64,000 nucleotides of DNA from Naegleria gruberi (Eukaryota), in NCBI GenBank assembly GCA_000004985.1, contig GG738848.1, one strand, 5' to 3'. The notes beneath the pieces are model-generated. The model was given only the letters and a program-made list of their open reading frames with translations. It was not told the origin of the DNA and made no database searches. Position numbers and translations under genes: made by a program. Shown here piece by piece: positions 9,651 to 61,369 of this stretch. How positions within the stretch are numbered: the first letter of the stretch is position 1; each line of letters opens with the position of its first letter.

Positions 9651-11054
9651 TCATTCGCGAAAGCTAATGCCATTCAGAAGCTTTAATTGTTTGAATTGTG
9701 AAAATACTTCATTCTGCACGAATGTAAATTGATTATGCCTAATTGATAGTGCCGTTAATTGATTCATATTAATCATATGCTTTACCCCCTGGTAAGACAA
9801 TTCATTATTGTTCACCTCGAGAGCTGTTAACTTTTCCAATTTAGTGAGATATAGTGATCCCTCATCTGTAATATAATTGTTTGAAATATCCAGTATTGTT
9901 AATTCGTTCAAATCACCCAAAGATTTCATTCCATCATCAGAAATTTGACAATCATTAACAAATAGTTCTGTCAATTGTTTAATCTCACTGATGGATTTAG
10001 CCCCATCATCACCGAATGCATTTGAAGAAATATTCAAATGTGTTAATTGACTCAATCCACTTAATTGCTTAACTCCTTTAGCACTGATACCATTCGATTT
10101 AATATCTAGCAATGTTAATTGTTTCATTTTGCTAAGCTCCTCACATTCATCGAGAATAGTACAATTATTTATGCTTAGGGAAACCAATTTGTTCATTTTG
10201 CTAATTGCATTAATTCCGTCAGGATTTATACGATCAATTGAGAGAGCTGTTAATTGGTCCAACTCGCTCAACAAGATCACCTCCTCATCACCAACCTTAT
10301 TATCACCTATATCAAGATAAGTTAGTTGTTTCATCTGACTTATGGCTTTGGCACCCTCTCCTCCAATCCTATTTGATGAAACATTTAGCCAAGTCAATGT
10401 TTTCATTTCACTAATTACTTTTGCTCCTTCTGCACCAATATAATTATATCTAATACTGAGAGATTCTAATTTTTCCAATTGGCTAATATAATTTGCTCCT
10501 TCCAACCCAATCCCATTAAAATCAACACAGAGATGAATCAAATGTTTCAATGTTCCAATTGACTTTAAACCATCCTCATTAGTAAAGTGACTTCCTAATG
10601 TGAGGTGTGTTAAATTTTTCATTAAAACAAAACCTTGAATTACCTTAGCTCCAAGAGTATTATAATTAAATGTTAGAAATTTAATTTGCACTCTTTCAAT
10701 ACTTTCCAAGAATTGACTTTTCATTAACGATTCTACTCTTTCACTATCAAACGGAACATTAAAATCCAAATAAAACGTAACTCGACTTTTGATAATATTT
10801 AAAAACTGTGTTGAAATTAATGTACAATTTTTCAAAATAAACCAATCATCCAGAAAACAAATAATTTCATAACAAATATCATCGGGAAATATTTCCTCTA
10901 TTATTTACCAAATAATACTAATATTTAACTACTATTTTCACTACTAATAATTACCCTGATGATGAATTTTTATAGCTTTACTCATTGGTTGAATTTCCGA
11001 ACTTTCACATGTAATAGAATCATTTGCAAACTCTTCTCTTTCTAATCTTTTCAT
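9651..11054 (-). CDS. F-box / RNI-type leucine-rich-repeat protein; two exons, complement(9651..10897, 10955..11054)
   Basis: The 394-aa ORF 9651..10835 carries about thirteen 24-aa repeats of the form LTxLxISxNxIGxEGAKxISxMKQLT, the ribonuclease-inhibitor-like LRR. The ORF-track start is TTG. A 57-nt intron (donor cagg|gtaatt, acceptor aataatag) joins an upstream ATG exon, MKRLEREEFANDSITCESSEIQPMSKAIKIHHQ. The junction encodes the F-box-like segment EEIFPDDICYEIICFLDDWFILKNC. Confidence 0.7.
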
Positions 11055-18734: not shown

Positions 18735-20036
18735 ATGGAAAGAGATGATGCATTTCATGATGATGTTATTTATGAAATTTTATCATTTCATGATGATTTT
18801 AAATTTCTTGTCATGAATTGTTCGTTGGTTTCTAAACAATGGTACCATGTTGTGTTAACAATGTGCAAGCAAATGACATTGAAATGCCATTCCGATGTAA
18901 ATGGTCACTTTATACAAAATATTGCAAATCTTGTGATTGAAAAACAATCCAATGTTTACAAGAATTTATTATTGATGAAATCATTGACAAAACTGTGTAT
19001 TTCATATGGCAATAAGAATAAGAAATTCAAAGTTGATGATGAAACACTTCAATACATTGGTGAATTGAAACAATTAACAAGTCTTCATATTCATGGAATT
19101 GGTATTGATAATGTTTGGGACATAGCTGATTTGAAACAATTAACAGAACTTGACATCTCTGATAATAAGATTAATTCTGAAGGAGCTAGAGTTATCAGCG
19201 AATCATTTAAACATTTAACAAAGCTTGATATATCCAACAATACTATTGATGTAGGAACCAAATATATAAGCCAATTGAAACAATTGACCTATCTGGATGT
19301 TTCTAATAATGAAATTGAAGAAGAGGATGTTAAATATATTGGAAATATGAACGGATTAACAAGTCTATCTATTCAGTACAATCATATTGGTAATATTGGT
19401 GCTCAATACATTAGTGGACTGAAACAGATAACTACTCTCTCTATTTATAGCGGTGATATTGGTGATGAAGGAGCTAAATATATCAGTGAAATGAAACAAT
19501 TAACAAATCTGAATATTGGTTTCAATAATATCAATATAAGAGGAGCTATACACATTTCTAAATTGAAACAATTGACAGAACTTTCTATTTCTGCGAATAA
19601 CTTTGGTTCTGGAGGACTTAAATACATTACTCAATTAAAACAATTAACAAAACTTTATTGCTGTGACAGTGAAATTGATAGTGAGGGAGTTAAATATATA
19701 AGTGAAATGAAACAATTAACAGATGTTGACCTTAGTTATAATAACATTAACAGTGAAGGAGTTAAATATCTTAACAAATTGAAAAAATTAACTAAACTTT
19801 ATATAGGAGGCAATGATTTAGGTAATAAAGGAGCTATGTACATAAGCAGACTGAACCAATTAACACATCTAGATATTTGTAGAAATAATGTTAGTGATGA
19901 AGGATTCAAGTCAATTAGTAAAATGAAACAATTGAGCAGTCTGTTTATTTCTGAAAATACTATTTCTGGTGAAGGAGTTGAATACATACGTAAAATGACA
20001 CAAGCAGCAAGTATTTGTGTGGACTTTGGAGATTAG
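18735..20036 (+). CDS. F-box / RNI-type leucine-rich-repeat protein; single exon; paralogue of 9651..11054
   Basis: ATG at 18735. The N-terminal F-box-like segment is DDVIYEILSFHDDFKFLVMNCSLVSKQWYHVV. About thirteen 24-aa repeats follow (LTxLDISxNxIxxEGAKYISxLKQLT), the same repeat type as the gene at 9651..11054 on the opposite strand. Confidence 0.75.
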   Translation: MERDDAFHDDVIYEILSFHDDFKFLVMNCSLVSKQWYHVVLTMCKQMTLKCHSDVNGHFIQNIANLVIEKQSNVYKNLLLMKSLTKLCISYGNKNKKFKVDDETLQYIGELKQLTSLHIHGIGIDNVWDIADLKQLTELDISDNKINSEGARVISESFKHLTKLDISNNTIDVGTKYISQLKQLTYLDVSNNEIEEEDVKYIGNMNGLTSLSIQYNHIGNIGAQYISGLKQITTLSIYSGDIGDEGAKYISEMKQLTNLNIGFNNINIRGAIHISKLKQLTELSISANNFGSGGLKYITQLKQLTKLYCCDSEIDSEGVKYISEMKQLTDVDLSYNNINSEGVKYLNKLKKLTKLYIGGNDLGNKGAMYISRLNQLTHLDICRNNVSDEGFKSISKMKQLSSLFISENTISGEGVEYIRKMTQAASICVDFGD

Positions 20037-22619: not shown

Positions 22620-23843
22620 ATGATTTCACACCAAGAAGGGGAACAAGTTGTCTCACAGCAGCAGCAAATCATTGATGACAATAATGTGGAGAATGTTTCA
22701 TCATCGGATCAAGCTAATAATGAAACCAATATTATTGTTGTTCATCCAACAAATTTAAATCAAGATTATTATCGGAATGAAGAAACATTCAAGCAAGCTA
22801 TGAATAATTTTGTAGATTTAGCATCAAAACAAGAAGAATCAATAGATAAATCCTTTAAAAGAAATATAATAATATTCCCAGAAATGATTGGAGCATGGTT
22901 AATTTGTCTAAATGAACAACCCTTCACTTTTTGGATTCCTTCACAATTATTAGCAATAATATTTATTGCATTTTCAAATATTATTCAATTTATAAGATAC
23001 TTTATTAATGAATGTTGGATTTACTTTTCAGAAATTAAAAGATTGACTAATTTATTAAGTTTTGTAGCATGGGAGGGAATAATTTATAGAAGTATTTTCA
23101 AGATGAAATCACAATTAATGTTTGATGTTTATTTGAGTACATTTTCAGAGATTGCCATTAATAGGAATGCCTATGTCATTGCAGGTTCAATTTATTTACC
23201 AAAAATTGAATATACTCACAAGTTCAAGAGATTGACCAATGATGGATTTTACAATCAATCAATTGTTTTTGATCCAAGAGGAAATATTTGTCATATTAGT
23301 GTCAAGGCATTCCCATCAGAAGATGAACATTACATTCTCACAAAGCAAAAAGATAGAATTTTCAAATCGAATGATTTCACCTTTGAGATTGAAGATTTTG
23401 GAAGAGTTATTCTCTTGATTGGATATGATTCATGGTATCCAAATTGTTATCCAACAGCCATTTCTAAAGAAAAGGATATGCCAAAACTTGTCATTGTTCC
23501 ATTTCTTTCTTCACCAGCAAATTCTTGGAAAGAATGTTGGCAAGGTTTTCAAGACAATGGACCTCTTCCACAAGATTTTGATGAATTTAACTTGGCAAAT
23601 TCAACAAGTTTGAGTGATTTATGGAAAGGTGATGGTGCAGGTTTGAGAATTTTCAAACAAAATAAGACCACCTCAAATCAATTATCAACCACAAATAATA
23701 TTAACACCTCATCATACTTTATTTGTTGTCAAATGACTGGAAAAATTTGGAGTTTATCAGCTAATGGTGAATCATTTATTAGAAACTCTGAGAAAGTACT
23801 ATTAGAAACTAACCTCAATGGATTTAATATTTCAATAAAATAA
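22620..23843 (+). CDS. Carbon-nitrogen hydrolase (nitrilase superfamily)-like protein with hydrophobic segments; catalytic Cys apparently not conserved
   Basis: ATG at 22620. The pattern matches CN-hydrolase: IIIFPEM (Glu region), ...KFKRL.., then FDPRGNICHISVKAFP...FEIEDFGRVILLIGYDSWYP and KLVIVP. The usual I-C-(W/Y)-(E/D) site appears as IGYD. The exact 30-nt repeat 22580..22609 abuts the start codon. Confidence 0.4.
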   Translation: MISHQEGEQVVSQQQQIIDDNNVENVSSSDQANNETNIIVVHPTNLNQDYYRNEETFKQAMNNFVDLASKQEESIDKSFKRNIIIFPEMIGAWLICLNEQPFTFWIPSQLLAIIFIAFSNIIQFIRYFINECWIYFSEIKRLTNLLSFVAWEGIIYRSIFKMKSQLMFDVYLSTFSEIAINRNAYVIAGSIYLPKIEYTHKFKRLTNDGFYNQSIVFDPRGNICHISVKAFPSEDEHYILTKQKDRIFKSNDFTFEIEDFGRVILLIGYDSWYPNCYPTAISKEKDMPKLVIVPFLSSPANSWKECWQGFQDNGPLPQDFDEFNLANSTSLSDLWKGDGAGLRIFKQNKTTSNQLSTTNNINTSSYFICCQMTGKIWSLSANGESFIRNSEKVLLETNLNGFNISIK

Positions 23844-39268: not shown

Positions 39269-41309
39269 TTACATTGAATACTGGAAATAGGTAGCTCCAT
39301 GTTTGTGGTAAAGTTCTCGTTTGTATGGATCTCCCAAAATGGAGAAGGCATAGTTGATTTGTTTGAATCTTTCAATAATTTCTTCTGTGGTCCATTCCTC
39401 ATCGTTTGTTTTGGTTTGTGTTGTAGATGATTCTTCTTGTTCTGGTTCGCCTGAGATTTCAGATGATGAGAGAACAGATTTTCTTTTACTGGAATTGAAC
39501 AAATCAGGATGGTAAATCATAGCAAGCTGAGACAGTTAGGTTGAGTGAATTTAAAATACTTGCCTTCTTATATTGAGATCGAATTTCTTCTTGAGTATAC
39601 AAGCTAAACTTTTGGGCATCAAGTTCTAAAAGAGAGTATAAATCACAACCCTTACTGATTTCAATGGCAAGGGCAGTATTACCATCTGATGGGTTAGCAC
39701 AATACTTCCAGGCATTCGAGTAAATTTTTTGTAATGGCTTGTTGGAAATATACTTGTTGTGAACGTGGACAGCAAACTTCTTATGGTGCTCCTTATGTAA
39801 TAAAGGTTTGTAGTATGTCTCTGTGCTAGCTCCAAATGCAGCAAATAAAGAAAAGAAAAATCCATAAATTAATGAGCTATAGATGTCAATAAATGGGAAT
39901 AATGAGGAAATAATACCCCAACCAGAGTAAACTCCTGTAAAGTATGATAAAAATAATTTAGGGAAACTGTATGGTACATATCCTGTCACATAGCTTGTAT
40001 CAATGCCGTTTGTAAATGAGTGGAACGTATGTTCACCATGAGACAAGTTTCTAACCTTATGTCTAATATGGAATGGACTGAAAAGTTTAAGGGTATGTGG
40101 AAAATTGAGAACATCCTGTTTGACATAGACAGGAATATAAATCATTTCCTTTTTGTGTAATTTGAAATCAGTTTTTTCAATATTAAAATTAGAAAGTTGA
40201 ATAGTTGGAGAATCGAATAAAGTTCGTTCTTCTGTGGAGGTTATAGTTTTGGAGATAATTTGTTTCATGCTTTCTTGGAGTTTGTGAGGTACTGTATTAT
40301 CCAAAGCCAATGACCAAGATGTTTCCCAATCGACAGTATAATAATCGACAGAATAATCTCTTTTAAATGATGATCTCTTGAACCATGATTTGATATCATC
40401 CCACAAATTTTGATACCATTTCAATTTGTAATTAATTTTTGAAATATAGGTAGGGTCTGTGAGGTATTTCTTATCTATTTTATATGCAATTCTATTGATA
40501 TACCTTCTCTCAAAAGAAGTTGATGCATATATTGTGGCATAATCATCAACCATCGTTTCAGTACCCAATAATTTAGTTGGCTCGACATGTTCGTCCAATT
40601 TGATATGATCTATAATACAGCTAATAGTTATTTCTGAGCTTGTAAGAGTTTCAATTTTGAAGGTATGGTCTTGAATTTGAAATTGATTTTTCAGAATTGT
40701 TTTCATAATATCAGCAAGTTCTTTCAATCTGCTTTCATCTTCCAATTTTAACTCTTTCAAAATTTTCTTTTGATTCTTTTGCTTTTGATGTACATCTCTT
40801 TGTGAAAAATCCTCAGGATTAGCGGTCAATATGAGAGGATCCTTTTCAGGAATAACTTCCTCAATTTCTCCGAACAAATTGGTCAATAATTCTCTTTGTT
40901 TCCTTGGATCGATAGTAATCCTTGTTTTTACTTTATATCCACAAGCATCACCATATTGAAAAACCCACAATGGAACATAAACTTGTTCAGGATACACATC
41001 TGGTTTGTACCAACTTCTTGGTCCATAGAATCTATTTTTCTGATGAGCATACTCCACAAAAGCATCACTAGCATCCTCAGGTGATGCTCTAAATTCACTA
41101 GCTACTTTCAACTTGATTTCTCCAAGATCTTGCTGCTCATCTCGGGTGATCGTCTTTGTTCGGAATGAAAAATTCCTTGTTGCACTATTTTCCACAATTT
41201 TATAATTCTTCTTATTTGATGATAGGCTTGATGATAACAGCAGTAGTGATGTTATCTTTTTCCTAGTACTATTACCAGCAGGGACAACAAGCCTTTTAAG
41301 TGATGGCAT
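39269..41309 (-). CDS. Polytopic membrane protein with a C-terminal J (DnaJ) domain; two exons joined by a 37-nt GC-AG intron, complement(39269..39526, 39564..41309)
   Basis: The large ORF ends ...DLYSLLELDAQKFSLYTQEEIRSQYKK, which is J-domain helix I-II. The donor aag|gcaagt and acceptor tctcag| continue as LAMIYHPDLF..., giving ...QYKKLAMIYHPD (consensus AYRKLALKYHPD). An acidic insertion follows, then ...FKQINYAFSILGDPYKRELYHKHG (helix III-IV). Hydrophobic segments (GWGIISSLFPFIDIYSSLIYGFFFSLFAAFG) precede the J domain. Confidence 0.6.
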
Positions 41310-41401: not shown

Positions 41402-44022
41402 TTATTGATCTTCTAAGGAGATATCACACTTTGATTGGCACAATTCAATCATGTTTGCTGCCAATTTATCATTACGTCCATTAAGCAATTGGTGATCGAA
41501 ATATTGCTGGAAGAGCAGTAGTGCATTCGAATAGTCAGATTCAAAGTACATGAGACATGCATTATTGTAGGTTTTCCACTTTTGTTTCTTTTCTTGTTCT
41601 TCCAATTCGTACATCCATTCTAAAAGAGAGATAATCAATTTTCAAATAATTCAATTGAACTACTTACCATCTGCATTTCCTTGAGTGGAATCTCCAATTT
41701 CAAAGATCTTTTCCATTTTGGAATGGTCCTCTATTCCATTAATGTGAAGGCTTTCTGAATATTCCACAACTGATGAGTAATTTTGATCTTCAATCATTTT
41801 CACATATCCAACAAATCTTGTGTGATATTGAGATTCAATTGCTTTTTGAATGGAATGGGAAGAAACTAATTTCAAATCGAATTCTCTTGCCCTTCTCAAC
41901 ATGGTTTCCAAATTACTTTTGGCATTTGAAATAAGCGTGTAATTCTTACTATCATTTGTTCCAACATTACCACAAACACATTCTTGAAGACAGATGGCAG
42001 CTCTAATTTCCAAATCATCAATCAAATGCTTGTCAATTTTCTTTGCAAATCTGTTATTAGAAGAAAGCCATTTCTTCTCCTTAATTGACGAAAGTTTTTC
42101 CAGAATCATTCTTGTTGCTACCACTGCCTTTTCCTGATGTTTACTCTGGGCAGAAGTTGTATTGAATGAAATTGTAATGGAATCATTCTCAAATGAACCA
42201 AGTAATCCTCCATGTGTTCTGCATATAGTTGTGATTTGATCGAAGAAATCAGTCAACATATGAATTGTATCATGTGGAGAATGAATTGAGTTCAATACTT
42301 TTGAAAAATTATCTATCATGATGTTACTAATGGAAACTTTCTTCTTTTCTAAGAATAGAGAGAACATATCAGCCTTGATACTTGAATATTTGGAACCTTT
42401 TGAAGAATTCTCTGTATGATTAGTTCTAAATGATTCCTTCACTTGAGAATTGCTTTTGAATGAGCTCGAAATTGATTGTAACTCATTTGGCTTAGTTCCA
42501 TTCTCTTCAGAGGAGCCCATACCCTTCTGATCCAATTGAGCAAGCAAATGAGGTGGAAGGAAAGCTCTATACATTTTGATAGTGTTGGTCATTTCTAAAA
42601 AGTGTTTTTGTAAAGTTCTAACTTCTGAAAAAGTACTTGGTTGAACATTGACATTTTCCAAGTCCATGTGAGAAACTGCTTCGAATTGTTCGATGAGATT
42701 GTTGAATGGTTTTACAATTTTTATGGAAACGAGAACAGAGAGTGAGATAGAGACTGAAACAATAATTAAGGCGCCCAAAAGTGACGAAACAATTCCAATA
42801 ATTACTGATCCCATATAGTTCCACTTTGGAATACTCAGAACAAACATCCAATCAATGTTGGTATTTAGACACAATCTATATATCGAAACATAATCAGTCA
42901 TGTGGTCAAATGTTTTAGGAGTGTTGCAGGCAATGTTCGATTTAATATCTCCTTTAGCAAAATCAACAATTACATTGTAGATACTATTGATTCTTGTGTC
43001 CTCAATATTGGAAGCCGTCTTTCTGGCAACGTTTCCATTATCATCTAGAACGGCAGTTTTGGTATCCCTGTTATCAACTTTATCAATGGTCAACTTGGTG
43101 TTCAATAAAAAAAATACTTACTAGCAACTAGATAATTTTGGGCAACTTCAAATATAAAACTCTTGGACCCATCGATGATTTTCGTCTTATTAATCAAGAA
43201 ATCAGATGCACTAGCCACTGTAATATCAAATCCTTGAAAATAATCAAATTTAATGGTATCCTGAGCTGATCTAGCAGTGAAAGAGAAACAATAAACTAAT
43301 GAATAGAAGGTATCCAAATTTTCAGTGGTAACATCCACAAATCCTCTTGTAAAGGTCAGTTTTTCAGGATGTTCATTACAAGTCTCTATAATATAGTCAA
43401 CATCTAATGGGTCTTGAATTATATCTGGAACATTTCCTCTCTGACATGTTTCATACTTTTCTAAATCTGGATCACATTTGTAAAATATCTGATGGTCTTG
43501 TGTACAATTGAGAATTGAAACATCTGTTCCTGAATTGTAAATTCCAAGATTAGTTCCAGAATTCTTTCCAACATAAATTGTTACAACAAGGTCAGAGTTT
43601 GCTCTCTGTTCTGATAAATAGGTCTGATAGACAATCTTTTCTATCTGATCATAGTTTTCAAAATCCAACAGGAATCTAATTTGAGCTCGCATGGTGTCAG
43701 CCCCATGAGTAACATCAAGCAAAATCTTCTTGACCGAATTGACTATTTCATTAAACTCTGAATCTCTTTCAGTTAAACTCAAATTGAAATTAGAAGGAAG
43801 TAAAGAGCTCATCCAAATAGCCGATAGAAAAAGAACACTAATCAATACTATTACTGAAATTAGAATAATAATACAGAACTTGATTGAAGCGAATGGTTTT
43901 CTTGATTCATCGAAATTTGTTTTTTCTAAAACTTTTTCAGAGTGAGAAGCTGAAGAAAAAACAGCACTTTCTTCATCAACATCATTGGGATGAATTGCAT
44001 TTGAGGACTTGTTGACCACCAT
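41402..44022 (-). CDS. Receptor-type protein with N-terminal TM, extracellular domain, second TM and a cytoplasmic class-III nucleotidyl-cyclase-homology domain (degenerate); three exons
   Basis: ATG at the complement of 44020-44022. The first TM is IIILISVIVLISVLFLSAIWM. A Cys-containing ectodomain of about 250 aa follows, then a 43-nt intron (a|gtaagt ... gataaag|), then the second TM (VIIGIVSSLLGALIIVSVSISLSVLV). The cyclase-homology region (..TDFFDQITTICRTHGGLLGSFENDSITISFN ... ICLQECVCGNVGTNDSKNYTLISNAKSNLETMLRRA..) has the metal-binding F-x-D-I-x-G-F-T replaced by IMIDNFSK. A last 39-nt intron joins ...NAD-EWMYELEEQ.... Confidence 0.5.
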
Positions 44023-45709: not shown

Positions 45710-48700
45710 AATGTTTGGTTCGCAAGTAGGGGGCGTAAATGACTTGGCAGGGGAGTATCCAACACTTGATGTGAGCACTCCAAGATCCTCGGGAGGTTCT
45801 TTCGCCACAACATCTTCTTCATCATCCAATGTTTCGAATATTGTTGATATTTTCAATTCGAAAGAAAAATTAATAGTTATTGTTGATTCCATTGACAATT
45901 ATAAAAATTCAGAAATCTACGGATCATCAACAGTTGCTTCTTCTAATAATTCAACAAATGATCAAGCAGGTGTTTATGTTCGAGTCAATTTTGACAATCA
46001 AGTTAGAATAACAGGTGTTAAAACATTTTACAGTAATACAAATCCTTGGAATATTAAATTAGGTAAAAGAGTTATTATTCCGTATGGAATTAGTGCTTTA
46101 CAAAGTGGAAAGTTATCAATTGAAGTATTCGAAACACAGACAGGTGAAGCCAAAGTACAAATAGATAAAAGATTGGGAAAGACTGAACCAATCAAAATTA
46201 ATGTAAGTTTTTGTTTTTTTGAATGAATTCATATTTATTGATGCTTTGACTAATTTGTAAAATAATAATAAATTATTATTAAAATATTTTACAAAATTAA
46301 AATTGGAAAATATTAGGTATTCGATATGAATCATCCAGTTGAATTTTCACTCAATTTAAGTGATGATGTTCAAGTACAATTTAGATTTATGAGAGCTCCA
46401 CTTGCCAATAAGGGACATTATAAAGCAATGGAAAGAAGTATCTATTCACTTCTTTTGAAAATGAAGCAATATGGTGAAAATGCACTTTCTAGAATTAATA
46501 ATCCAGAAGAAGATGATGATGATTACGATCCAGAGAAGGAAGAGGAAGAAATCTCAACAAGACAACCAAAAATACTCAAATCTGGATTCATGTTAAAAAG
46601 AGGACAGGGTAATTTTGCCAAGTGGGCTCGTCGTTATATTGAATTGGATGATACACTCTTATTGAAATATTATGCATCTGATTCAGAGGAAGATAGGAAA
46701 GAACCTCTAGGTATTGTTGTTATTGACAGTGATGCAATGGTTTATGTGCCACGAGATGAAGCCATGGAAAAGGAATTACAAAAACAAAAGAATATTGAAA
46801 AATCAAAGGAATTTGTCTATTACAATCAGGCTCTATTGGATGAAGATGATGCACAGAACAGTTTTGAGAGTATTGACGATTTGGAAGCTGACGAACAACA
46901 AACCATCAACATTATTAGAAGAAAACGTAGAGAATTGGAAAGAAGAGGTCCAATGCTTGATTTGGATGAATTATATCCTTATTATTTACTTGCTTCTAGT
47001 GAAAGTGAAAGAGATAGAACACTCATCATTGATGAAATCATTGAATCAATTGAAAAGGAAGAGTCTGGTGAATCAGTCACTATTAAATCTCACACAAAGG
47101 AAGAGAGAAAATTGGAAAAATTCTTAAATTTGGTAAATCCAAAAGGTTTCAAGTTTTCCCTTCAATGTCAAACTAGTTTCAGTAACGGAAAGGAACATAA
47201 TTTGAGAGAGCATCAATTCATTACTGATTCTGAAGAAGCTAGAAAGGAATGGATAACTGCTATCTGTGAACACATCTTACTCGAAGAAAAGAGAACTGAT
47301 TTGAGAGATCCTGAAGAAGAAATTCACTCCAAGATTTTCCCATATCTGGACTTTTTCGAATTATTAACAACTGAAACACCACTTCAAGAAGTTGTCAGAT
47401 GTTTCAATTCCTTCCAACTCAATGTTTCTGAAAAGATGGTTGCTCCTCTGTTAACACTCTTTGATGCCTCTGATTCACCAAAGACAAGTGTGGAATTTGT
47501 CAAAAGTGCCATCTCTGTCGAAGTTGACAGTGCAGAATCTGCTGGTACCCTTTTCAGAAGAAACAGTTTATCATCCAAATTGGTAACCTTATTCTTTAAA
47601 GTTTTTGGTTTGCGTTATCTCACCAAAACTATTAAACCATTCCTCATGAAACTCATCAAGGAAAATAAGAGTTATGAAATTGATGACGAAAAGGTTGCAT
47701 CAGATATTGCTGATAAGAATGCTGAATTATTGAAGGGAATTTGTGATGAAGTGTTAAATTTGATTATCAATTCAAAGTATGAATGTCCACCTCAAATCAG
47801 AGAAGTCCTAGCTCATACTTTTGAAGAATCTGAGCAAAAGTATGCAGCAAGTGGTGAATTGTGTGTTGGTGGTTTGCTGTTTTTGAGATTCTTCTGTCCT
47901 GCCCTTGTTACTCCACAACTTTTTGGTTTAATTAAGGATTCACCACCAAAGAATGTTCAACGTACATTAACATTATTGACAAAGATTCTCCAAAATATTG
48001 CCAATCAAATTAGAACTAGTGAAAGTAAGAAGGAAAAATTCATGAAGAGAGTTGAGGCCTATACTGGTGCTCAAATTGACAGTGTGAAGGATTTCTTGAG
48101 AAGTATGTCAGAAGAACCAAAGAAATATGTCAGAGAAACTAAGGAAATAGTTCCTGATCTCATCAAATTACAAAGTTTGGAATTTATTGCTCACCACTTT
48201 GGTGAAGCATTTACCAAAAAGTATTACAATTTCGAAAATGATATCATTACTGAGGCCACATTCCACAAGTTTGCCAATCGTTTGGCACTCATCTCTAAAG
48301 CAGGTCTCGATAAGAAAATCAAACAACTTTCACAAGATGATCCAAATGCCCTGGTGAGACCTTCAACTAAATCCACTTCATCCAATACTACTGGCGGTAG
48401 TGCTGGGAGTAGCAGGCCCAATCTCAGTATTTCAACTCAAAATCCATCGCCTTCTAAGACGATAAACTCACCCACTACCAAATCTCACTCTCCACACACT
48501 GTTTCCTCACCAAAACCAAAATGTGCCTCTCCTTCCACTTCTCCACTCACAACAACTGATAAACAACAACCAACCACTCCTCGAGGAATTACTTATAAGA
48601 ATCGTTCACCATCTGTCTCTGTAAACGATGTAGGACGTCTCACAAAGAATGTGAAAAAGATTGGTGGAACTGAATGGGACAGAAAAAGAGAAAGGAGAGC

Positions 48701-48893
48701 TGGAATCATAGTCAACCCAACCACATCAACTGCATCTTCATCAACTGATACAACTGCTACTACTAGTGCAACAACTTCCAATACTTCCGACTCCACAACA
48801 ACCTCAACAACAGATTCTTCTGCATTATCAAAGAGAGGTTCCATGAGAATTTTCAAACGTGTTGGAAACTCAAATTCCTCTCTCTATGATTAA
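45710..48893 (+). CDS. Ras GTPase-activating protein with C2-like and PH domains; two exons, 45710..46204 and 46317..48893
   Basis: ATG at 45710; the ORF-track start at 45615 is TTG. The donor aat|gtaagt and a 112-nt intron to attag| join in phase (..PIKIN-VFDMNHPVEF..). The PH domain is KSGFMLKRGQGNFAKWARRYIELDD...VVID. The RasGAP arginine-finger motif is TLFRRNSLSSKLV and the signature is FLRFFCPALVTPQLFGL. The C-terminal S/T-rich tail has homopolymer runs. Confidence 0.85.
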
Positions 48894-48988
48894 ATTTGGA
48901 AAACTCATTCCACAAAATAAATAATGTTAAATAAGAATCCATCCAATAATACCATTAGTTGAAACATTGTTTGCTACCTTAAACATTT

Positions 48989-49464
48989 ATGGAACTTGAA
49001 CTTATAAAAAAAATGGCGCAACAAGTTGTTCACTTGATAACGAAAGATAATGTCGCGCACACGCTTGAGGATGTAATCGTGATGAGTAGAATGTGGGAAA
49101 AGCTAAAGGATTCGGATGGTGAGGAAATTGTTAGTATTCACCTTCCGAATATTAATCACTTGACTTTACAAAAAGTTATTGAATATTGTGAGTATTATTC
49201 TCTACCTGAAAGAGTTGAAAGAAAGTTTCCAATGATGGGGACAAGGAAGGAAGAAATCAGTGATTGGGACAATCAGGTTAGTAATTGGAAAGTAAATTTT
49301 AATGAAATAATGTGAGATAGTTTTTAGAATTGGATTCGGCTCTATTGATTGATATTGCATTATCTGCCAACTATTTGGATATTACAAAGTTAGTGAACTC
49401 TTCATGCTTTAAGATTGCTTCATTAATTGAGAATGAAAACAGTAGTATACTGCAGGGTGAGTAG
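48989..49464 (+). CDS. SKP1: Skp1-like protein; exons 48989..49276 and 49321..49464 if it ends at the TAG; see the finding on the alternative splice into the DUF4116 ORF
   Basis: Exon 1 matches the Skp1 POZ region (..DSDGEEIVSIHLPNINHLTLQKVIEYCEYY..ISDWDNQ). A 44-nt intron (cag|gttagt ... gatag|) joins it to FLELDSALLIDIALSANYLDITKLVNSSCFKIASLIENENSSILQ, which matches the Skp1 dimerisation helix [37 protein letters not shown]. Confidence 0.6.
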
Positions 49465-49498
49465 GATGTTGACATTTTGTCTCTTAATCAACATTTAG

Positions 49499-50583
49499 AA
49501 TTACTGCAATGTACTAGTCTAGATTTCTATTATGACGAAGATGGTAATCATGTTTCTGATTTTATCATTGATTCAATTAGAGATAGGTTTTTTATAATCA
49601 TTCGTGTATTGGGCATTGTGCTATTTAGTTTTAATTCGTTTACAATAATTCTGGACAAGTTAAGGTTTTGGGAAAATAGAGATTTCTGTATGGAGGCAGT
49701 CAATAATGATGGAACATTACTTCGTTATGTTTCCAGCTATCTTAAGAATGATAGAGAAATTGTTTCCACAGCTGTCAATAATACTGCTTATGCACTTACA
49801 TATGCACCAACACAGTTTAAAGAGGACAAGGAAATGATTTTGCAAGCTGTGAAACAAGGTGGAGATATTTTACATTTGGTACCTACAGAGTTACGGAACG
49901 ATAGAGAAATAGTTGAGCAAGCAGTAAAGAAAAATGGAATGGCCATAAAGAATGTATCAGAAGAGTTGAGGAAAGATAGGAATACTGTTTTAGAGGCTGT
50001 CAGGCAAAGTGGTTGGGCGTTTCAAGAGGTTCCAGAAGAATTCAAGAAGGACAGAGAGATTGTTTTTGAGGCAGTTAAGCAAACACCACAAATGCTCGAA
50101 TTTGCTGATACTGGACTGGTTAATGATAGAGAGTTCATCTTACAGATTATCAAGAACAATGAAAATATCTTGGAATATGTTTCAGAATCATTTAGGAATG
50201 ATAGAGAGTTCATCCTTCAAGCTGTGAAAGTTAGAGGTTTTGTGCTTTCTCATATTCCAGAGGAATTGAAGAAAGACAGAGAAATTACATTGGAAGCAGT
50301 TAAAGAAAATGGCCTTGCTATTCAAGCAGCACACGAAGACTTTACAAATGATAGAGAAATTGTTTTGGAAGCCATCAAACAAGATGCCAAAGCTTGGAAA
50401 CAATTATTAGAAGAATGTAGAGACAGTGCCGAAATGCAAATAGAATTATTTGGTTTGGCTCTCTACTCCGCTTCACAAGAATTGAGAAATGATCCTGAAA
50501 TTTCCCAATTTGCATCCCAAGAATATGGAGAAGAAATACTAGAACTAGGCCAGAGTTATCTCAATCCTCCCCCAATGGAATAA
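49499..50583 (+). CDS. DUF4116 repeat array (about six ~50-aa repeats, xxLRNDREIVLEAVKQNG.AL..V.EE); probably continuous with the Skp1-like exons upstream
   Basis: The repeats have the DUF4116 signature (LKNDREIVSTAVNN..; LRNDREIVEQAVKKNGMAIKNVSEELRKDRNTVLEAVRQSGWAFQEVPEEFKKDREIVFEAVKQ...). The ORF-track start at 49477 is TTG. The first in-frame ATG is about 70 codons in, inside the repeat region. Confidence 0.6.
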
Positions 50584-50602
50584 ACTATTTCTTAATAGTT
50601 GT

Positions 50603-52246
50603 TTATTCGCAGGTATCAAGATCTTCTTCATCAATATAGAAAGCAAATCCACTTCCTTTCAGTAAATCTTTACCAAATACCTTTTTGAATTCTGCAATTC
50701 TTTTTCTTGCATCAGTAGATAATGGTAACATGTTGAGTAATTGGCTTGGAATAATTTCTCTATTGAAGAAGATTGATAATCCATCATTCTCTTCAAATTC
50801 CAATCCTCGTTTCTTTTCAGCCTGTTCATTGAATGTAAAGTATTTGTTTTCTTCCAACTTGCTCTTTAATTCATCGTTCAAAGGTACCCATGTATAGGTA
50901 TCAAAACAAAGAATTTCACTTGGGCTGTATTGACCCTTGTATTTCATCTTTTGGCAACTGTGAATATAAAATCCAAGATAGTAATATTTAAAATTTGGGA
51001 ACTTCTCACTTTCCTTCTTGATCATTTCAATTTCTGTAAGTGCAGAGTAAATACCAAGTGATAAATCCGAGTAGTCAGCATCGTAAAAGAAATAGACAGA
51101 GCTCAATCCAGTTGGAAGAACATCTAGAACGCTCACAGCAATCAATTTGTTGTCCAATCTGTATTGGAGATGGAATGTACCATATCCTTTCAATGGTTTC
51201 TTGTCTGATGTGGAATCTGTATCCACGTTCAACAAGCTAGAGTCACAGAGGAATCTCTGGTATCCTTTTGGAGTGCTATCATCTTCTTTGTGGACGATCT
51301 TTTGATACTTTTGATAGAGTTTGTATTCCTCTTCTCTATATTCAGAATCCATTAGAACTGTCTTGATTTCATGTAGTCTAGGATGAATCGCCTCTTTTTG
51401 AGTCGACTCTTTTTGCTTGGATTGTTCAAAATTTTTCTTTAACTGTTTGTCCAAAAGTTCAATATTAATATATCCGTTTTCTTCAATCTTGATAGAAATG
51501 TGATACGTTTCTTCCCATGAATGTTCATTAAGAAGTGAAACAATTTTTTCAGCCAATTCTTTCTTTTCAATTTCCTTGCAACCAAATTTCTTTTGCAATC
51601 CAAAGATTGAAAATGCTATTGGTGTTGACAATAAGTTTGGATTCTTCTGATTGGTTTGAATTCTTTGTTTTTCAAAAACTTGTTCTAATTGCTCTTTCAA
51701 TTTTTCTGTATTGTTACAGCCCTCAAATAAATCAACAATTTTTTGCATATTTTCCTTCAATAATTTTCTAAAATTATTGGTAATAGTTTCTACAATTGAA
51801 TTTTCATCCTCGAATTTTCTCTTTTTTGGATCTTTTTCACTTGTAGAGCTGTTATTATTTTCCTTCGATTCTTCATGATGAAAGGTACCCGTTTCCAAAT
51901 ATTTATCCATCTTTTTCATCACCTTTTTCTGATTCTTATTCATTTTAAACTCCAAACAATTTAACCTAATAGCATATTGTGGACAACATGTCTTATCATT
52001 CTGTGGTTGATAATAATACACTCCCGATCTTCTCATATTATGATACATCATCTTTTCATAAATATTGGCAGGAAGTTGATAAACGTGAAATCCAACACTC
52101 ACAGAGGTATCGGGAGTTCTCACATTCTTACCCGACTCATCTAATGTCTTACAATAACCACAACTATGAGCATCCTCTCCGTGAAAAATAATTGGACAAT
52201 AGTGTTGTTGTGGTTGCTTTTGTGCGGATCGATTTCGTTGACTCAT
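50603..52246 (-). CDS. ATE1: Arginyl-tRNA-protein transferase (ATE1; N-degron pathway); single exon, 547 aa
   Basis: The ATE_N Cys cluster is present (CGYCK..., ...DKTCCPQYAIRL). The ATE_C motifs are FHLQYRLDNKLIAVSVLDVLPTGLSSVYFFYD and YYLGFYIHSCQKMKYKGQYSPSE. ATG at the complement of 52244-52246. Confidence 0.85.
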   Translation of the reverse strand: MSQRNRSAQKQPQQHYCPIIFHGEDAHSCGYCKTLDESGKNVRTPDTSVSVGFHVYQLPANIYEKMMYHNMRRSGVYYYQPQNDKTCCPQYAIRLNCLEFKMNKNQKKVMKKMDKYLETGTFHHEESKENNNSSTSEKDPKKRKFEDENSIVETITNNFRKLLKENMQKIVDLFEGCNNTEKLKEQLEQVFEKQRIQTNQKNPNLLSTPIAFSIFGLQKKFGCKEIEKKELAEKIVSLLNEHSWEETYHISIKIEENGYINIELLDKQLKKNFEQSKQKESTQKEAIHPRLHEIKTVLMDSEYREEEYKLYQKYQKIVHKEDDSTPKGYQRFLCDSSLLNVDTDSTSDKKPLKGYGTFHLQYRLDNKLIAVSVLDVLPTGLSSVYFFYDADYSDLSLGIYSALTEIEMIKKESEKFPNFKYYYLGFYIHSCQKMKYKGQYSPSEILCFDTYTWVPLNDELKSKLEENKYFTFNEQAEKKRGLEFEENDGLSIFFNREIIPSQLLNMLPLSTDARKRIAEFKKVFGKDLLKGSGFAFYIDEEDLDTCE

Positions 52247-52526
52247 TTTTTTTGATCTTTAAATAAATAAAATTCCACCAATAAGAATAACATTAATGAG
52301 TTGATCATTACAAAATTGTTTTGAATAGAAGATGGAATTGAGAAAACAGTTATTGTTAGATGGGACAAATAGTCTATACTGAATAAGCAGTGTCGGATAA
52401 TAGTTAAACACGTTTGTGAAATGTCCACCAACATTTAATAGTCGTACATTTACACGTGTTTCGAATGGTTTGTGGAATTATTTAACAAGCTCACATTTTG
52501 GTCATTCTTTGAAAATCAAAAACAAA

Positions 52527-53717
52527 ATGCAAACCCAAGTTATAATTATTGGTGGTGGAATTGGTGGATTGGCTCTTGGACAAGGTTTGAAAAAAGCTGG
52601 AATTTCTTTCATAATATGTGAAAGGGACCTGTCAAGAGATTATAGACCTCAAGGATATAGATTACGTATTAGTTCAGAAGGACATGATGCTCTTGAGAAG
52701 TTGCTACCAACAAATGTTTGGGAATTATTCAATAAGGTCATTATTACAAACAAGTTAAAGTTTACAAATATTGATGCATTGGAGGGAAAAGTTGTTCCAA
52801 TGGAGAGATCTCCACCGAATCATGCTGATCCAAATAAGCCAAATACTGCTGATAGACATGTTCTTCGTGCATTGTTGATGTTTGGTTTGGAAGATGATGT
52901 TAAATTTGGATGGGAATATCAAGAACATCAGTTGACCAATGATGGTGTTAGGGTTTTCTTTAAGAATGGTCAAACAATTGAAGGTAATATTTTGGTAGCA
53001 GCTGATGGTGCCAATTCCAAAGTTAGAGTGGCAGAAATTCCTGATCACAAACTTTTGGACACTGAAGGTAGAGCCATATTTGGTAAAACTCTTCTTACTA
53101 ATGAACTAGAATCCAAATTTCCAAAGGAAGGTCTTCAGAACACAACCATGATCACTCAATCTGAACCACTGGTTAATTTATTTCTCGAACCAGTTTCCTT
53201 CACTCATGATCATGAAATGATTTCAGGAGGAAAAATCCCTAAACCTCACAACTATGTTTATTGGGTTCTTGTTTTGAATAGAGTCAATTTAGAGTTACAA
53301 GATAAGGAACTATTTCAATTATCAAAGGAAGAATTGAAGAAATATGCTCTTCAATTGACAGAAAATTGGAATGGCAGTGTTAGATCATTAATTGAACTTT
53401 CTCAAGAAAGTGAAAGCTCTTTTATTAGAATCTCATCTTTTTCACCAAATATTCCAGAGTGGAAAACTGAAAGATTGACCTTTGTTGGAGATTCCATTCA
53501 TGCCATGACTCCAATTGGATTGGGAGCAAACCTAGCTATGAAAGATGCTGCAATTCTATGCGACTGTCTTGTCAAGAATGGAATTAACAAGGAATCCCTT
53601 AGAATTTATGAGAAGGAAATGAAACTCTATGCTGAAGAGAACATTAGACTATCAAGACAAGGAGGTTTCAGATTATTTAGACAACCAGAATTTGAAAACT
53701 GTAAATTTATTCAATAG
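52527..53717 (+). CDS. FAD-dependent aromatic-ring monooxygenase (salicylate hydroxylase / zeaxanthin epoxidase-like)
   Basis: The true ATG is at 52527 (MQTQVIIIGGGIGGLALGQ, the Rossmann GxGxxG). The ORF-track start at 52416 is GTG. The DG motif is VAADGANSKVR and the FAD-binding GD motif is FVGDSIHAMTPIGLGANLAMKDA. Confidence 0.8.
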   Translation: MQTQVIIIGGGIGGLALGQGLKKAGISFIICERDLSRDYRPQGYRLRISSEGHDALEKLLPTNVWELFNKVIITNKLKFTNIDALEGKVVPMERSPPNHADPNKPNTADRHVLRALLMFGLEDDVKFGWEYQEHQLTNDGVRVFFKNGQTIEGNILVAADGANSKVRVAEIPDHKLLDTEGRAIFGKTLLTNELESKFPKEGLQNTTMITQSEPLVNLFLEPVSFTHDHEMISGGKIPKPHNYVYWVLVLNRVNLELQDKELFQLSKEELKKYALQLTENWNGSVRSLIELSQESESSFIRISSFSPNIPEWKTERLTFVGDSIHAMTPIGLGANLAMKDAAILCDCLVKNGINKESLRIYEKEMKLYAEENIRLSRQGGFRLFRQPEFENCKFIQ

Positions 53718-53840: not shown

Positions 53841-54458
53841 ATGTCTCAAATACCTCCATCATCATCAACAACAACACTTTATGCTGTTCAATTCAGTGGT
53901 CATATTGATCTAACAGAGGAGGAATTCAAACAATACTATCTATCACATCTGGAAGAAAGTATTTCCAACAATGAACAAATCTATGTGGGGGGAGCAAAAG
54001 GCGCTGACGAATTAACACAAAAATTTGCACAAAAATTGATTTCCGAAACTAAAACGAGTTTCAAATTAATGATTGTTTGTGATTTGAAAAATGATGATTT
54101 TCGAGTGGATAAGAGATTTGACTGTAGGAAGGGATTTTTGAATCATACAGCACGTGATGAAATGATGACAAAGAATACCTCAAGAGATGTTGCCTTCATT
54201 CGATACAAGCCAATGTCATTGGGAAGTGGAACGTTGGCTAACATTTTGAGGAGACAATTTGGATCTAATATCAGTAAAAAGTTTAAGAGACATGCAAGAG
54301 ATTTGTATGCAAAGGCAACAGATCAAGAATCGAAAGAATTATTTGATGAAATAATTGAAACATTCGTGAAGAATATGGAATCTATGAAAGGCAAGTATGG
54401 ATTAGAGAAATTGCCCCAAGTTATTCATTCACATACAATGGGATACGGTAATAATTAG
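53841..54458 (+). CDS. Hypothetical small protein with a possible SLOG-like (YpsA/DprA-type Rossmann-like) core
   Basis: ATG at 53841. The pattern LYAVQFSGH...IYVGGAKGADELTQKFAQKL...KLMIVCD resembles the strand / G-G-x-x-G-x-D-helix / strand core of SLOG-family domains. This is a weak assignment made from memory of the motif. Confidence 0.25.
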   Translation: MSQIPPSSSTTTLYAVQFSGHIDLTEEEFKQYYLSHLEESISNNEQIYVGGAKGADELTQKFAQKLISETKTSFKLMIVCDLKNDDFRVDKRFDCRKGFLNHTARDEMMTKNTSRDVAFIRYKPMSLGSGTLANILRRQFGSNISKKFKRHARDLYAKATDQESKELFDEIIETFVKNMESMKGKYGLEKLPQVIHSHTMGYGNN

Positions 54459-59351: not shown

Positions 59352-60064
59352 TCTCGTCAAACCATTGGAATTTGAAAACTTGACACAAACGAGCATGCAT
59401 AAATGTAAATAAACAACAAAATTATAGAGATGTCGTGGTTGTGTTGATATTAGGACTGACCCACTAGTTTAATTAGCATTGCCAGCAGAAACCTTTCACT
59501 TATAATTTCACTTGCCTTGATGACCGCACATGTATTTGACAAAACATGTTTAGTTAACTGAATAGCAAATTTAGCTGATAACCTTTTGGTAAGTGTTGAA
59601 CTGTCCTCTTCCTTGCTTGGAAAACTTGTTTAAAATAATTGTGGTTGAAAAAATTAATTAATTTTAAAAAACTGTGAAAAGCCTGAGCATGAAGGTATTT
59701 TATTTCCAATTAATCCATTTAAGTTTTACATTAAGACTGTTCAGTTCACAAGTTCGGTTTGGGTTTAATTAGCTTTTGCGCAACCACACAAAATAGAAAG
59801 CAATGACCCTTTTCACTCAAATAAAATCCACTCCTCAATCTTAAAAACATTGAAAATTCTCAAACAAAACAACATTCCATGGTTTTCAACCTATTGTGTT
59901 TCATGGCAATGAGTTGGTTTGCATGTTGAGGAACAAACCATTGTTTTTCTGCATAGGAAAGGCTTCGGAAAATTCATAAAAAATTCCTTCACATCAACCA
60001 CTTAAGGAGGTATTGTCGAGTGCATTTCCGCCATTTACATTCACCTCATCAATTTGCTACAAAC

Positions 60065-61369
60065 ATGTTTGATCCTCTGAAGAATTACAATTTTGATCGC
60101 ATGAACAATCTTGTGCGAGAGATTGGTTCCGAACAAGAAAGGAAGCAAGCCAATACTACCAACTCAACAACATCATCAATAGAGTTTAATGAAGAAAATA
60201 CTGTGGAAGTTAATTTAAAGTTTGATGAGTTTATGGATAATATTGAATTGGTGAAGCCTTTTCTTTATAACATTGAGAGATTTATAATTTCATATAATGA
60301 ATTGAGTGAAGAACAAGCCAGTGAAAAAGTTGACATGTCTCCTCTTTCAAAGAAGTGTAAAATATTGGATGCAAGTCATAATAATTTCAAGAACATGTCT
60401 CATGCATTTTGGAGTTTTTTATTCAATGCATCCATCACTTACTTTAATTTATCCAATAATTGCCTTGTAGAATTTATTTCTTCCAAAATGGATGCTACAT
60501 GGTTGCCTAAATTGGAATATTTGATATTGGCCAATAATTCCATCTGTTCACTCATCAACTCAACAGAGACCTCATTACTTTCTTCTCTTATAAGGCTCGA
60601 TTTATCAAACAACCTTGTTGATAATGATTCTTTGAATAATATTTTATTTGGTGGAAATCTTACAAACCTCAAACACCTCTATGTGAAGAATAACAAAGTC
60701 TCTGGTACTTTGAAAAATGTGAACTCGGTCAATCAATCACTTGAAGAAATTTATTTGGATGAAAATCAAATTGAGCAAGTAGATAATTCATGGTTTTCCT
60801 CATTACCAAATCTCAAAGTCATTTCTTTACCATTCAACAAAATTCAAGATATAGACATCCAAACCAATAACAAAATTGAAAAGATCTACCTTCATTCCAA
60901 TCAAATCAAGAGTATTGACAGCATTAAGGCTGTTTTCTCTGATTCCTTAAAAGTTTTTTCAGCCCATCAAAATCAAATATCAACCATTCCTGAAGAAATT
61001 TCAAACTCTATTTCTCTCAGAGAAGTTACGTTTTTCAACAATACTATTCAACAATTACCAAAAGGATTGTACAACTTGATCAATATTGATACGCTATATC
61101 TTCAAAATAATGAAATTGCTGAACTTTTACCAGAATTAGGAAATTTAACAAACTTGACAGAATTGGATTTATTCAATAACAAGCTCTCCTCGCTTCCTTC
61201 AACAATTGGTAATCTTACCAAATTGAAGAGATTATGCCTTGATAGTAACAGATTGAAAACTATTCCTGCAGATGTTGTCAATCTTTCCAATTTAATTTCC
61301 TTCACTTTCCACAATAACCCTGAACTAAAAGTTTCACCATACATCCAAATGATGTCAACAGGAATGTAA
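60065..61369 (+). CDS. Leucine-rich-repeat protein of the SHOC2/Rsu1 (Ras-group) LRR type
   Basis: The true ATG is at 60065 (MFDPLKNYNF...); the ORF-track start at 60020 is GTG. The C-terminal half has typical 23-aa LRRs (LxxLxxLxLxxNxIxxLPxxIGN), for example LTNLTELDLFNNKLSSLPSTIGNLTKLKRLCLDSNRLKTIP. Confidence 0.7.
   Translation: MFDPLKNYNFDRMNNLVREIGSEQERKQANTTNSTTSSIEFNEENTVEVNLKFDEFMDNIELVKPFLYNIERFIISYNELSEEQASEKVDMSPLSKKCKILDASHNNFKNMSHAFWSFLFNASITYFNLSNNCLVEFISSKMDATWLPKLEYLILANNSICSLINSTETSLLSSLIRLDLSNNLVDNDSLNNILFGGNLTNLKHLYVKNNKVSGTLKNVNSVNQSLEEIYLDENQIEQVDNSWFSSLPNLKVISLPFNKIQDIDIQTNNKIEKIYLHSNQIKSIDSIKAVFSDSLKVFSAHQNQISTIPEEISNSISLREVTFFNNTIQQLPKGLYNLINIDTLYLQNNEIAELLPELGNLTNLTELDLFNNKLSSLPSTIGNLTKLKRLCLDSNRLKTIPADVVNLSNLISFTFHNNPELKVSPYIQMMSTGM

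Follow-up and report, generated by a model that had tools for sequence, protein, structure and literature searches.

A 64,000-nucleotide stretch of Naegleria gruberi contig GG738848.1 (assembly GCA_000004985.1), referred to below as the window, contains a locus at which a Skp1-like domain and an array of DUF4116 repeats are likely encoded by one spliced fusion gene, a reading to which we assign a probability of roughly 0.75. The predicted gene, on the + strand, would be made up of three exons separated by two short introns, join(49013..49276, 49321..49456, 49499..50583), and would specify a protein of ~494 residues. The predicted layout of this protein is a Skp1-type BTB/POZ head, followed by a ~55-residue linker with a very hydrophobic helix and then by a DUF4116 solenoid of ~300 residues. 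The gene is apparently unannotated in N. gruberi, and the pairing of Skp1 and DUF4116 in one predicted chain is unusual.

The predicted junction between the two halves

In the gene model, the Skp1 and DUF4116 halves are joined by removal of intron 2 (49457..49498, +), a proposed phase 1 intron of 42 nt, a multiple of three, that begins GTGAGT and ends TTTAG. Exon 2 and the DUF4116 open reading frame (ORF) lie in the identical genomic frame and are parted by a single TAG, which is located inside GTGAGTAG, a 5' splice consensus. Since the flanking ORFs share a frame and only the TAG in the donor parts them, intron 2 would be a multiple-of-three intron with an in-frame stop codon. Left unspliced, exon 2 runs to ILQ-G-E-TAG, with the TAG at 49462-64, and retention of the intron yields a 135-residue Skp1 stump (from ATG 49013); removal of the intron deletes the sole in-frame stop between the two halves. 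At the donor, the exon sequence CTGCAGG is followed by GTGAGTAGG, and the 3' end of the intron is ACATTTAG. Across the exon 2/exon 3 junction, the predicted protein sequence is ...NSSILQELLQCTSLDF...

An earlier, sequence-only reading of this DNA had described the downstream ORF as having no ATG for its first ~70 codons and as being listed from a TTG. This is correct: the TTG is at 49477, and the first ATG, at 49690, is codon 72. The 71 ATG-less open codons that precede it have a probability of 0.0063 under the local noncoding composition. Furthermore, ATG 49690 falls at position 7 of repeat unit 1 (ENRDFC-M-EAV versus NDREIVLEAV), and the unit begins six codons upstream; thus, coding must start upstream of this ATG. 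A DUF4116 ORF that lacks an early ATG, shares the frame of the Skp1 exon, and follows it directly is explained most simply by intron 2. The coordinates and arithmetic of the sequence-only reading (the exon ends, the introns of 44 and 42 nt, TAG 49462-64, and the 1509-nt join) likewise hold when the sequence is read and the join is translated; taken from the upstream ATG, join(48989..49276, 49321..49456, 49499..50583) is 1509 nt and gives 502 residues plus a stop.

Intron 2 resembles the introns around it. About 15 other ORF-bridging introns were inferred in the window; these are 40-114 nt long, have mostly GTAAGT and some GTATGT or GTTAGT donors, and most end in TAG. Intron 2 agrees with these local introns in length, in acceptor, and in the presence of a CTTAAT branch-like motif, and it has GT...AG ends with a consensus-like donor. 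Both strands of the window together (128 kb) contain ~97 consensus-type donor hexamers. From these counts, we estimate that a donor of this type no more than a few codons from the stop, combined with an in-frame TAG acceptor 30-120 nt farther on, would arise by chance roughly once in 100 to 300 cases; for a consensus donor at the stop with an in-frame TTTAG acceptor, the figure is ~0.003-0.015.

A comparison is provided by L004, a 1835-bp metagenome contig of a closely related strain whose nucleotide differences from N. gruberi amount to ~1.3-1.6% per site. The donor, the acceptor, and the TAG of intron 2 are all kept in L004; in this single second strain, intron 2 has one substitution and no indels, versus a 5-nt deletion in intron 1. 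The three indels that distinguish the two strains respect the gene model: relative to N. gruberi, L004 has a 12-nt in-frame insertion in exon 1, the 5-nt deletion (not a multiple of three) within intron 1, and a 1-nt insertion upstream of ATG 49013.

The AlphaFold2 (AF2) model places helix H6 of the Skp1 fold across the intron 2 junction. With exon 3 included, the match to the Skp1 profile gains 3 bits; 1.9% of the shuffled tails and 5.7% of the tails taken from real ORFs do equally well (p ~0.02-0.06). Skp1 homology across intron 2 was set aside as decisive proof because the gain is only 3 bits and is matched by such tails. Together, the case for splicing of intron 2 is circumstantial but coherent. 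Of the in-frame Skp1-DUF4116 splice put forward in the sequence-only reading, the donor, the acceptor, the frame, and the domains stand; the splicing itself is read from sequence, and no fused relative was found.

The Skp1-like head

Judged by its sequence and its predicted fold, the N-terminal part of the protein is a genuine Skp1 homologue, and it is so more firmly than its Pfam score suggests. Pfam Skp1_POZ (PF03931) is matched with 22.7 bits in the fused form and 25.4 bits in the short form, against a gathering cut-off of 21.9 bits. A phmmer search against PDB sequences aligns query residues 30-145 with residues 25-140 of human SKP1 (E=1e-13). When 1.8 billion representatives were scanned exhaustively with HMMER, 1745 matches were obtained at E<=0.001, the best 150 of which have Skp1-type lengths. 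A profile built from 91 Skp1 sequences gives 120 bits on the predicted protein. Sequence identity between the head and Skp1 representatives is 30-39%; the near-invariant Skp1 columns A103, N105, Y106, L112, L113, and C117 are preserved in exon 2.

Structure prediction gives a similar picture. In a full-length AF2 run with a mixed alignment, the Skp1 part reached a predicted local distance difference test (pLDDT) score of only 30-50; when the head was remodelled with a clean Skp1 alignment, pLDDT was 80-95 over residues 1-130. The top 50 Foldseek matches listed for the head in the PDB are all Skp1 chains, with a probability of 1.00 and target-normalised template modelling (TM) scores of 0.62-0.85. 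The Skp1-like assignment made originally is therefore borne out by a Skp1_POZ match above the cut-off, the human SKP1 match, and a modelled Skp1 fold.

The head is encoded by two exons. Exon 1 (49013..49276, +) specifies the N-terminal half of the Skp1-like BTB/POZ domain, with Pfam Skp1_POZ at residues 16-70 and 53.8 bits to the Skp1 profile, and exon 2 (49321..49456, +) specifies helices H4-H5 and the start of H6, including the SANYLDI motif, with 37.8 bits to the profile. Intron 1 (49277..49320, +), a 44-nt, phase 0 intron that begins GTTAGT and ends GATAG, lies between them. Exon 1 ends ...SDWDNQ, directly before the GTTAGT, and the alignment with human SKP1 is ungapped across the exon 1/2 junction (WDNQ/FLELD versus WDQEFLKVD). 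Given this ungapped homology and the 5-nt deletion in the second strain, the predicted intron 1 has good support.

The start codon is probably ATG 49013 rather than ATG 48989, giving a protein of 494 residues. In L004, the 1-nt insertion, which lies between these two ATGs, throws ATG 48989 out of frame with the remainder of the gene, and in the profile search the Skp1 match begins at the second methionine, M9 of the 502-residue form. For these reasons, 49013 displaces 48989, the start taken in the sequence-only reading. The possible 5' extension from the in-frame ATG 48989 (48989..49012, +; MELELIKK) is probably 5' leader and not coding.

At the other end of the head, the alignment with the Skp1 profile extends as far as model position 147 of 185, just past LDFYYDED, the equivalent of 'NDFTPEEE'. 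The Skp1 C-terminal domain (PF01466) has no match at E<=1 in the predicted protein, and no frame of 48800-50700 encodes a Skp1 C-terminus. The helix that canonical SKP1 inserts into F-box proteins consists of residues 147-163 (PMC13237083). The predicted head is a shortened Skp1-like domain, which keeps the core fold and H4-H6 and is without the F-box-gripping helices H7-H8. For putative binding to Cul1 and to F-box proteins, the features seen are conserved motifs only (LPN, ANYLDI, and the near-invariant columns). The locus had earlier been said to encode a Skp1/cullin/F-box (SCF) adaptor domain; the Skp1 homology in that description is sound, but with neither H7-H8 nor PF01466 the head is not a complete Skp1, and the label claims more than the sequence allows.

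The linker and the DUF4116 array

Exon 3 opens with the linker (49499..49671, +), an open frame without an ATG that encodes the end of H6, the Skp1-like LDFYYDED, and then a unique region. Within the linker is a hydrophobic segment of 19 residues, IIIRVLGIVLFSFNSFTII (49594..49650, +), whose 19-residue Kyte-Doolittle mean of 2.14 is the highest in the protein and which AF2 models as a long helix with a pLDDT of 60-77. This helix may serve for packing in the protein interior or as a membrane segment, or it may be partly spliced out at 49587-49628. This last interval (+) is a 42-nt, T-rich, multiple-of-three segment, GTTTTT...TTTAG, from which most of the hydrophobic helix is translated and in which two of the L004 strain differences lie; its GTTTTT donor is non-consensus, and so it has no donor support.

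The rest of exon 3 (49672..50583, +) encodes ~11 DUF4116 units of 24-25 residues and a C-terminal tail, ending with the stop codon TAA at 50581-83. Pfam DUF4116 (PF13475) is matched in six stretches of the predicted protein with 317.1 bits, far above the cut-off of 24.9 bits and in accord with the assignment first made, and homologues reach E values down to 1e-107. AF2 models this half as a confident alpha-solenoid (pLDDT >90), in agreement with the alpha-solenoid obtained for the DUF4116 family by the contact-based method trRosetta (PMC8078820). A search of the PDB found no fold match of the solenoid at E<=0.001, and the weaker matches are generic helical repeats.

The DUF4116 family is expanded in Naegleria, where most members are bare arrays. 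Among 120 DUF4116 proteins examined, a few add kinase, RING, BTB, EF-hand, ankyrin, or DnaJ modules. One of them, P0096, has a DUF4116 array and a RING-H2 in a single continuous metagenomic ORF. Another, the N. fowleri protein model P0029 (L005 3001-5959), has a DUF4116 array and a BTB domain; here, the BTB-DUF4116 join depends on an intron of ~850 nt with a 125-aa ORF inside it, and the DUF4116 ORF has its own in-frame ATGs. On these grounds, P0029 was downgraded as a precedent for an adaptor-DUF4116 fusion.

Products of the locus in protein collections

Nine candidate products of the locus were looked up by exact match in a collection of 15 billion proteins, and none is present. The candidates included the fused forms of 502 and 494 residues, the unspliced forms of 143 and 135 residues, the ATG-start and TTG-start DUF4116 products of 297 and 368 residues, the intron 1 read-through, and ORF3 of L004. 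The only product that exists there is P0241, a 104-aa exon 1 read-through product on L004 that is 96% identical to the query over 89 residues. P0241 was found by the exhaustive HMMER scan and missed by the word-indexed protein search, which makes negatives from indexed searching weak; the word-indexed search with the N-terminal 204 residues, which gave no match, is the same search that missed P0241. No product of the locus from the N. gruberi reference was found in the protein collections searched.

Weighing the alternatives

Several observations weigh against a single fused gene. No protein with both Skp1 and DUF4116 is present among the best 150 Skp1-type representatives or the 120 DUF4116 proteins examined; the sequence-only reading had suggested looking for this architecture in related genomes and for Skp1_POZ, Skp1, and DUF4116 in the 502-residue form, and all of these domains except Skp1 (PF01466) were matched. 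N. fowleri and N. lovaniensis have no orthologue at the syntenic position, and two sequence patterns neighbouring the junction gave 0 matches in Joint Genome Institute (JGI) metagenome contigs. The P0029 model may itself be two merged genes. Within the window, GTGAGT is not otherwise a clear donor, and GTAAGT dominates. In addition, a transmembrane-like helix between two cytosolic-type modules is odd. Finally, the ratio of nonsynonymous to synonymous differences per site (pN/pS) between N. gruberi and L004 is ~0.83 (10 nonsynonymous and 3 synonymous), compared with ~0.2 in the neighbouring RasGAP tail. Codon bias is weak along the whole gene. Sequence comparisons indicate a gene that is confined to the N. 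gruberi lineage and evolves fast; this restriction and the weak constraint suggest that it is young, and its function may be marginal.

The codon content of the linker also counts on this side. Its codon log-likelihood ratio is -11.4, versus -12.5 +/- 6.2 for a noncoding null, and a lower score is found in only 1.2% of coding windows. This noncoding-like score is largely an effect of amino-acid composition. In synonymous codon choice, the linker scores -0.088 per codon and exon 1, whose coding status is proven by homology, scores -0.090; because these scores are equal, the codon test does not discriminate, and it was rejected as decisive.

If the splice signals of intron 2 were coincidental, the locus would hold two separate genes, one for a 135-aa, C-terminally truncated Skp1-like protein ending at TAG 49462-64 and one for a 297-aa DUF4116 protein starting at ATG 49690. 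The 225-nt gap between this TAG and ATG 49690 is larger than the 120-nt RasGAP-Skp1 spacer and would have room for a promoter, the composition of the linker is noncoding-like, and stand-alone arrays make up most of the DUF4116 proteins of Naegleria. However, three coincidences would have to occur jointly: the shared frame (1 in 3), the 71 open codons (P=0.0063), and the donor with its acceptor (~0.003-0.015). The second gene would also begin by cutting repeat unit 1 (ENRDFC/MEAV), and the Skp1 stump would end in the middle of helix H6, making the two-gene arrangement improbable. Similarly improbable is a decaying or non-functional chimeric locus, in which the TAG is a nonsense codon in a once-continuous or never-functional ORF, the intron signals are unused or used inefficiently, and no stable fusion protein is made. 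The pN/pS value, the weak codon bias, the restriction of the gene to one lineage at a synteny break, and the identical frame on either side of the TAG would all fit decay, but the TAG is positioned exactly within a GTGAGT donor with a typical acceptor 42 nt on. Moreover, the whole frame is open in both strains, with the only indels that are not multiples of three lying outside the proposed coding sequence, and the DUF4116 repeats are still highly regular (317 bits, pLDDT >90).

Least probable of the alternatives, and by our estimate very unlikely, is a real fusion with another exon structure, in which the donor at 49457 is joined to a different in-frame acceptor (e.g., TCTAG, giving a 66-nt intron) or the segment 49587-49628 is also removed. 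In-frame acceptors do occur at intron lengths of 66, 84, and 126 nt, and 49587-49628 is T-rich, a multiple of three, ends in TTTAG, and has two strain differences. Yet the 42-nt acceptor is the first TAG past the plausible branch site CTTAAT, and GTTTTT is unlike any donor inferred in the window. The preferred reading is one spliced gene of three exons.

Genes around the locus

By Pfam matches, the predicted fusion locus sits between a PH-RasGAP gene (46326..48893, +) and ATE1, whose ORF (50603..52246, -) is 100% identical over 547 residues to the NCBI N. gruberi arginyltransferase, an identity that confirms the window as N. gruberi. Only 19 nt lie between the TAA that ends the DUF4116 gene (50581-83) and the stop codon of ATE1, which is convergent with it (50603-05, -), and therefore the 3' untranslated regions must overlap. 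The interval between ATE1 and RasGAP, in which N. gruberi has only the Skp1-DUF4116 gene, is the site of a synteny break (48894-52246 versus L001 11672-15908 and L003 11627-15802), with actin-like, SRP54-type GTPase, and FKBP genes in N. fowleri/N. lovaniensis. Past ATE1, on its far side, where N. fowleri has a transaldolase gene, the window has instead a FAD-binding ORF (52416-53717) and an unassigned ORF (53841-54458).

At least one further exon of the PH-RasGAP gene lies upstream; it ends at 46202 and is connected through a GTAAGT...ATTAG intron of 114 nt (46203-46316, +), a multiple of three with 14% GC. Homology with N. fowleri reaches upstream to ~45960; given this and the upstream exon, the 855-aa RasGAP ORF is not the whole protein.

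Elsewhere in the window, the three F-box genes mentioned in the sequence-only reading were not confirmed; three leucine-rich repeat (LRR) ORFs are present, at 9651-10835 (-), 18735-20036 (+), and 60020-61369 (+). An F-box match is found only in the second of these, 18735-20036, and it is below threshold (15.4 versus 20.5 bits). F-boxes may sit in upstream exons of the LRR ORFs, which were not examined for them. Four long ORFs of 300-660 residues (2494-4488, 22620-23843, 39504-41309, and 41660-44022) match no Pfam family at E<=1e-4.

Relation to known systems and possible function

The predicted head shares with canonical Skp1 (human SKP1, yeast Skp1, Arabidopsis ASK1) the BTB/POZ core, H4-H6, the LPN loop, the ANYLDI motif, and the predicted fold. 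It differs in being without H7-H8, with an alignment that ends near human residue 140-147, and in being followed by ~350 extra C-terminal residues. Plant type II SKP1-like proteins, ASK20 and ASK21, consist of a Skp1 domain plus a C-terminal extension, and the predicted N. gruberi protein is like them in having extra C-terminal sequence after its Skp1 domain; 'SKP1-like protein 20' is among the PDB sequence matches of the head. However, the extensions of ASK20 and ASK21 are not known to be DUF4116 repeats, and the Skp1 domain is complete in both. Elongin C, a small protein that stands alone and has BC-box proteins as binding partners, has a Skp1_POZ-type fold that ends without H7-H8; in contrast, the best matches of the N. 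gruberi head are Skp1, not Elongin C.

In layout, the predicted protein is similar to the BTB receptors of Cul3 (BTB-Kelch, BTB-MATH) and to P0029, in which an N-terminal cullin-adaptor module of the POZ fold and a repeat domain are present in a single chain; P0029 has the same DUF4116 repeats as well. The resemblance is one of layout only, as the N. gruberi head is Skp1-type. The predicted protein has no Pfam match to the BTB domain (PF00651) and no sequence similarity to the BTB of P0029. Its C-terminal half is a typical array of the kind seen in other DUF4116 proteins, but none of those examined carries a Skp1 domain.

If the fusion is made, the Skp1-like head would dock on a cullin-type scaffold or on another Skp1 partner, and the covalently attached DUF4116 solenoid would provide the partner- or substrate-binding surface, which is normally the part of the F-box protein. 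The predicted protein would then be a one-piece adaptor-receptor, analogous to the BTB-domain receptors on Cul3, a proposal taken from architecture only. More specifically, N. gruberi might have an F-box-independent, one-piece SCF-type receptor, in which a Skp1-derived head without the F-box-gripping helices still docks on a cullin and is fused to a substrate-binding DUF4116 solenoid; this idea is speculative and on balance unlikely.

The analysis flags a predicted gene with no N. gruberi reference product in the collections searched and corrects its likely start codon. If the fusion is indeed made and binds a cullin, then a layout with a built-in receptor, so far typical of BTB/Cul3, can also evolve in the Skp1 branch of the cullin adaptors, and the N. 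gruberi protein would be a Skp1/Cul1 counterpart of the Cul3 BTB receptors. It would also offer a first clue to the function of DUF4116, by casting it as a recognition module associated with ligases, and would point to a role in protein recognition in ubiquitin pathways for this large repeat family, which is uncharacterised, occurs in bacteria and protists, and is expanded in Naegleria.

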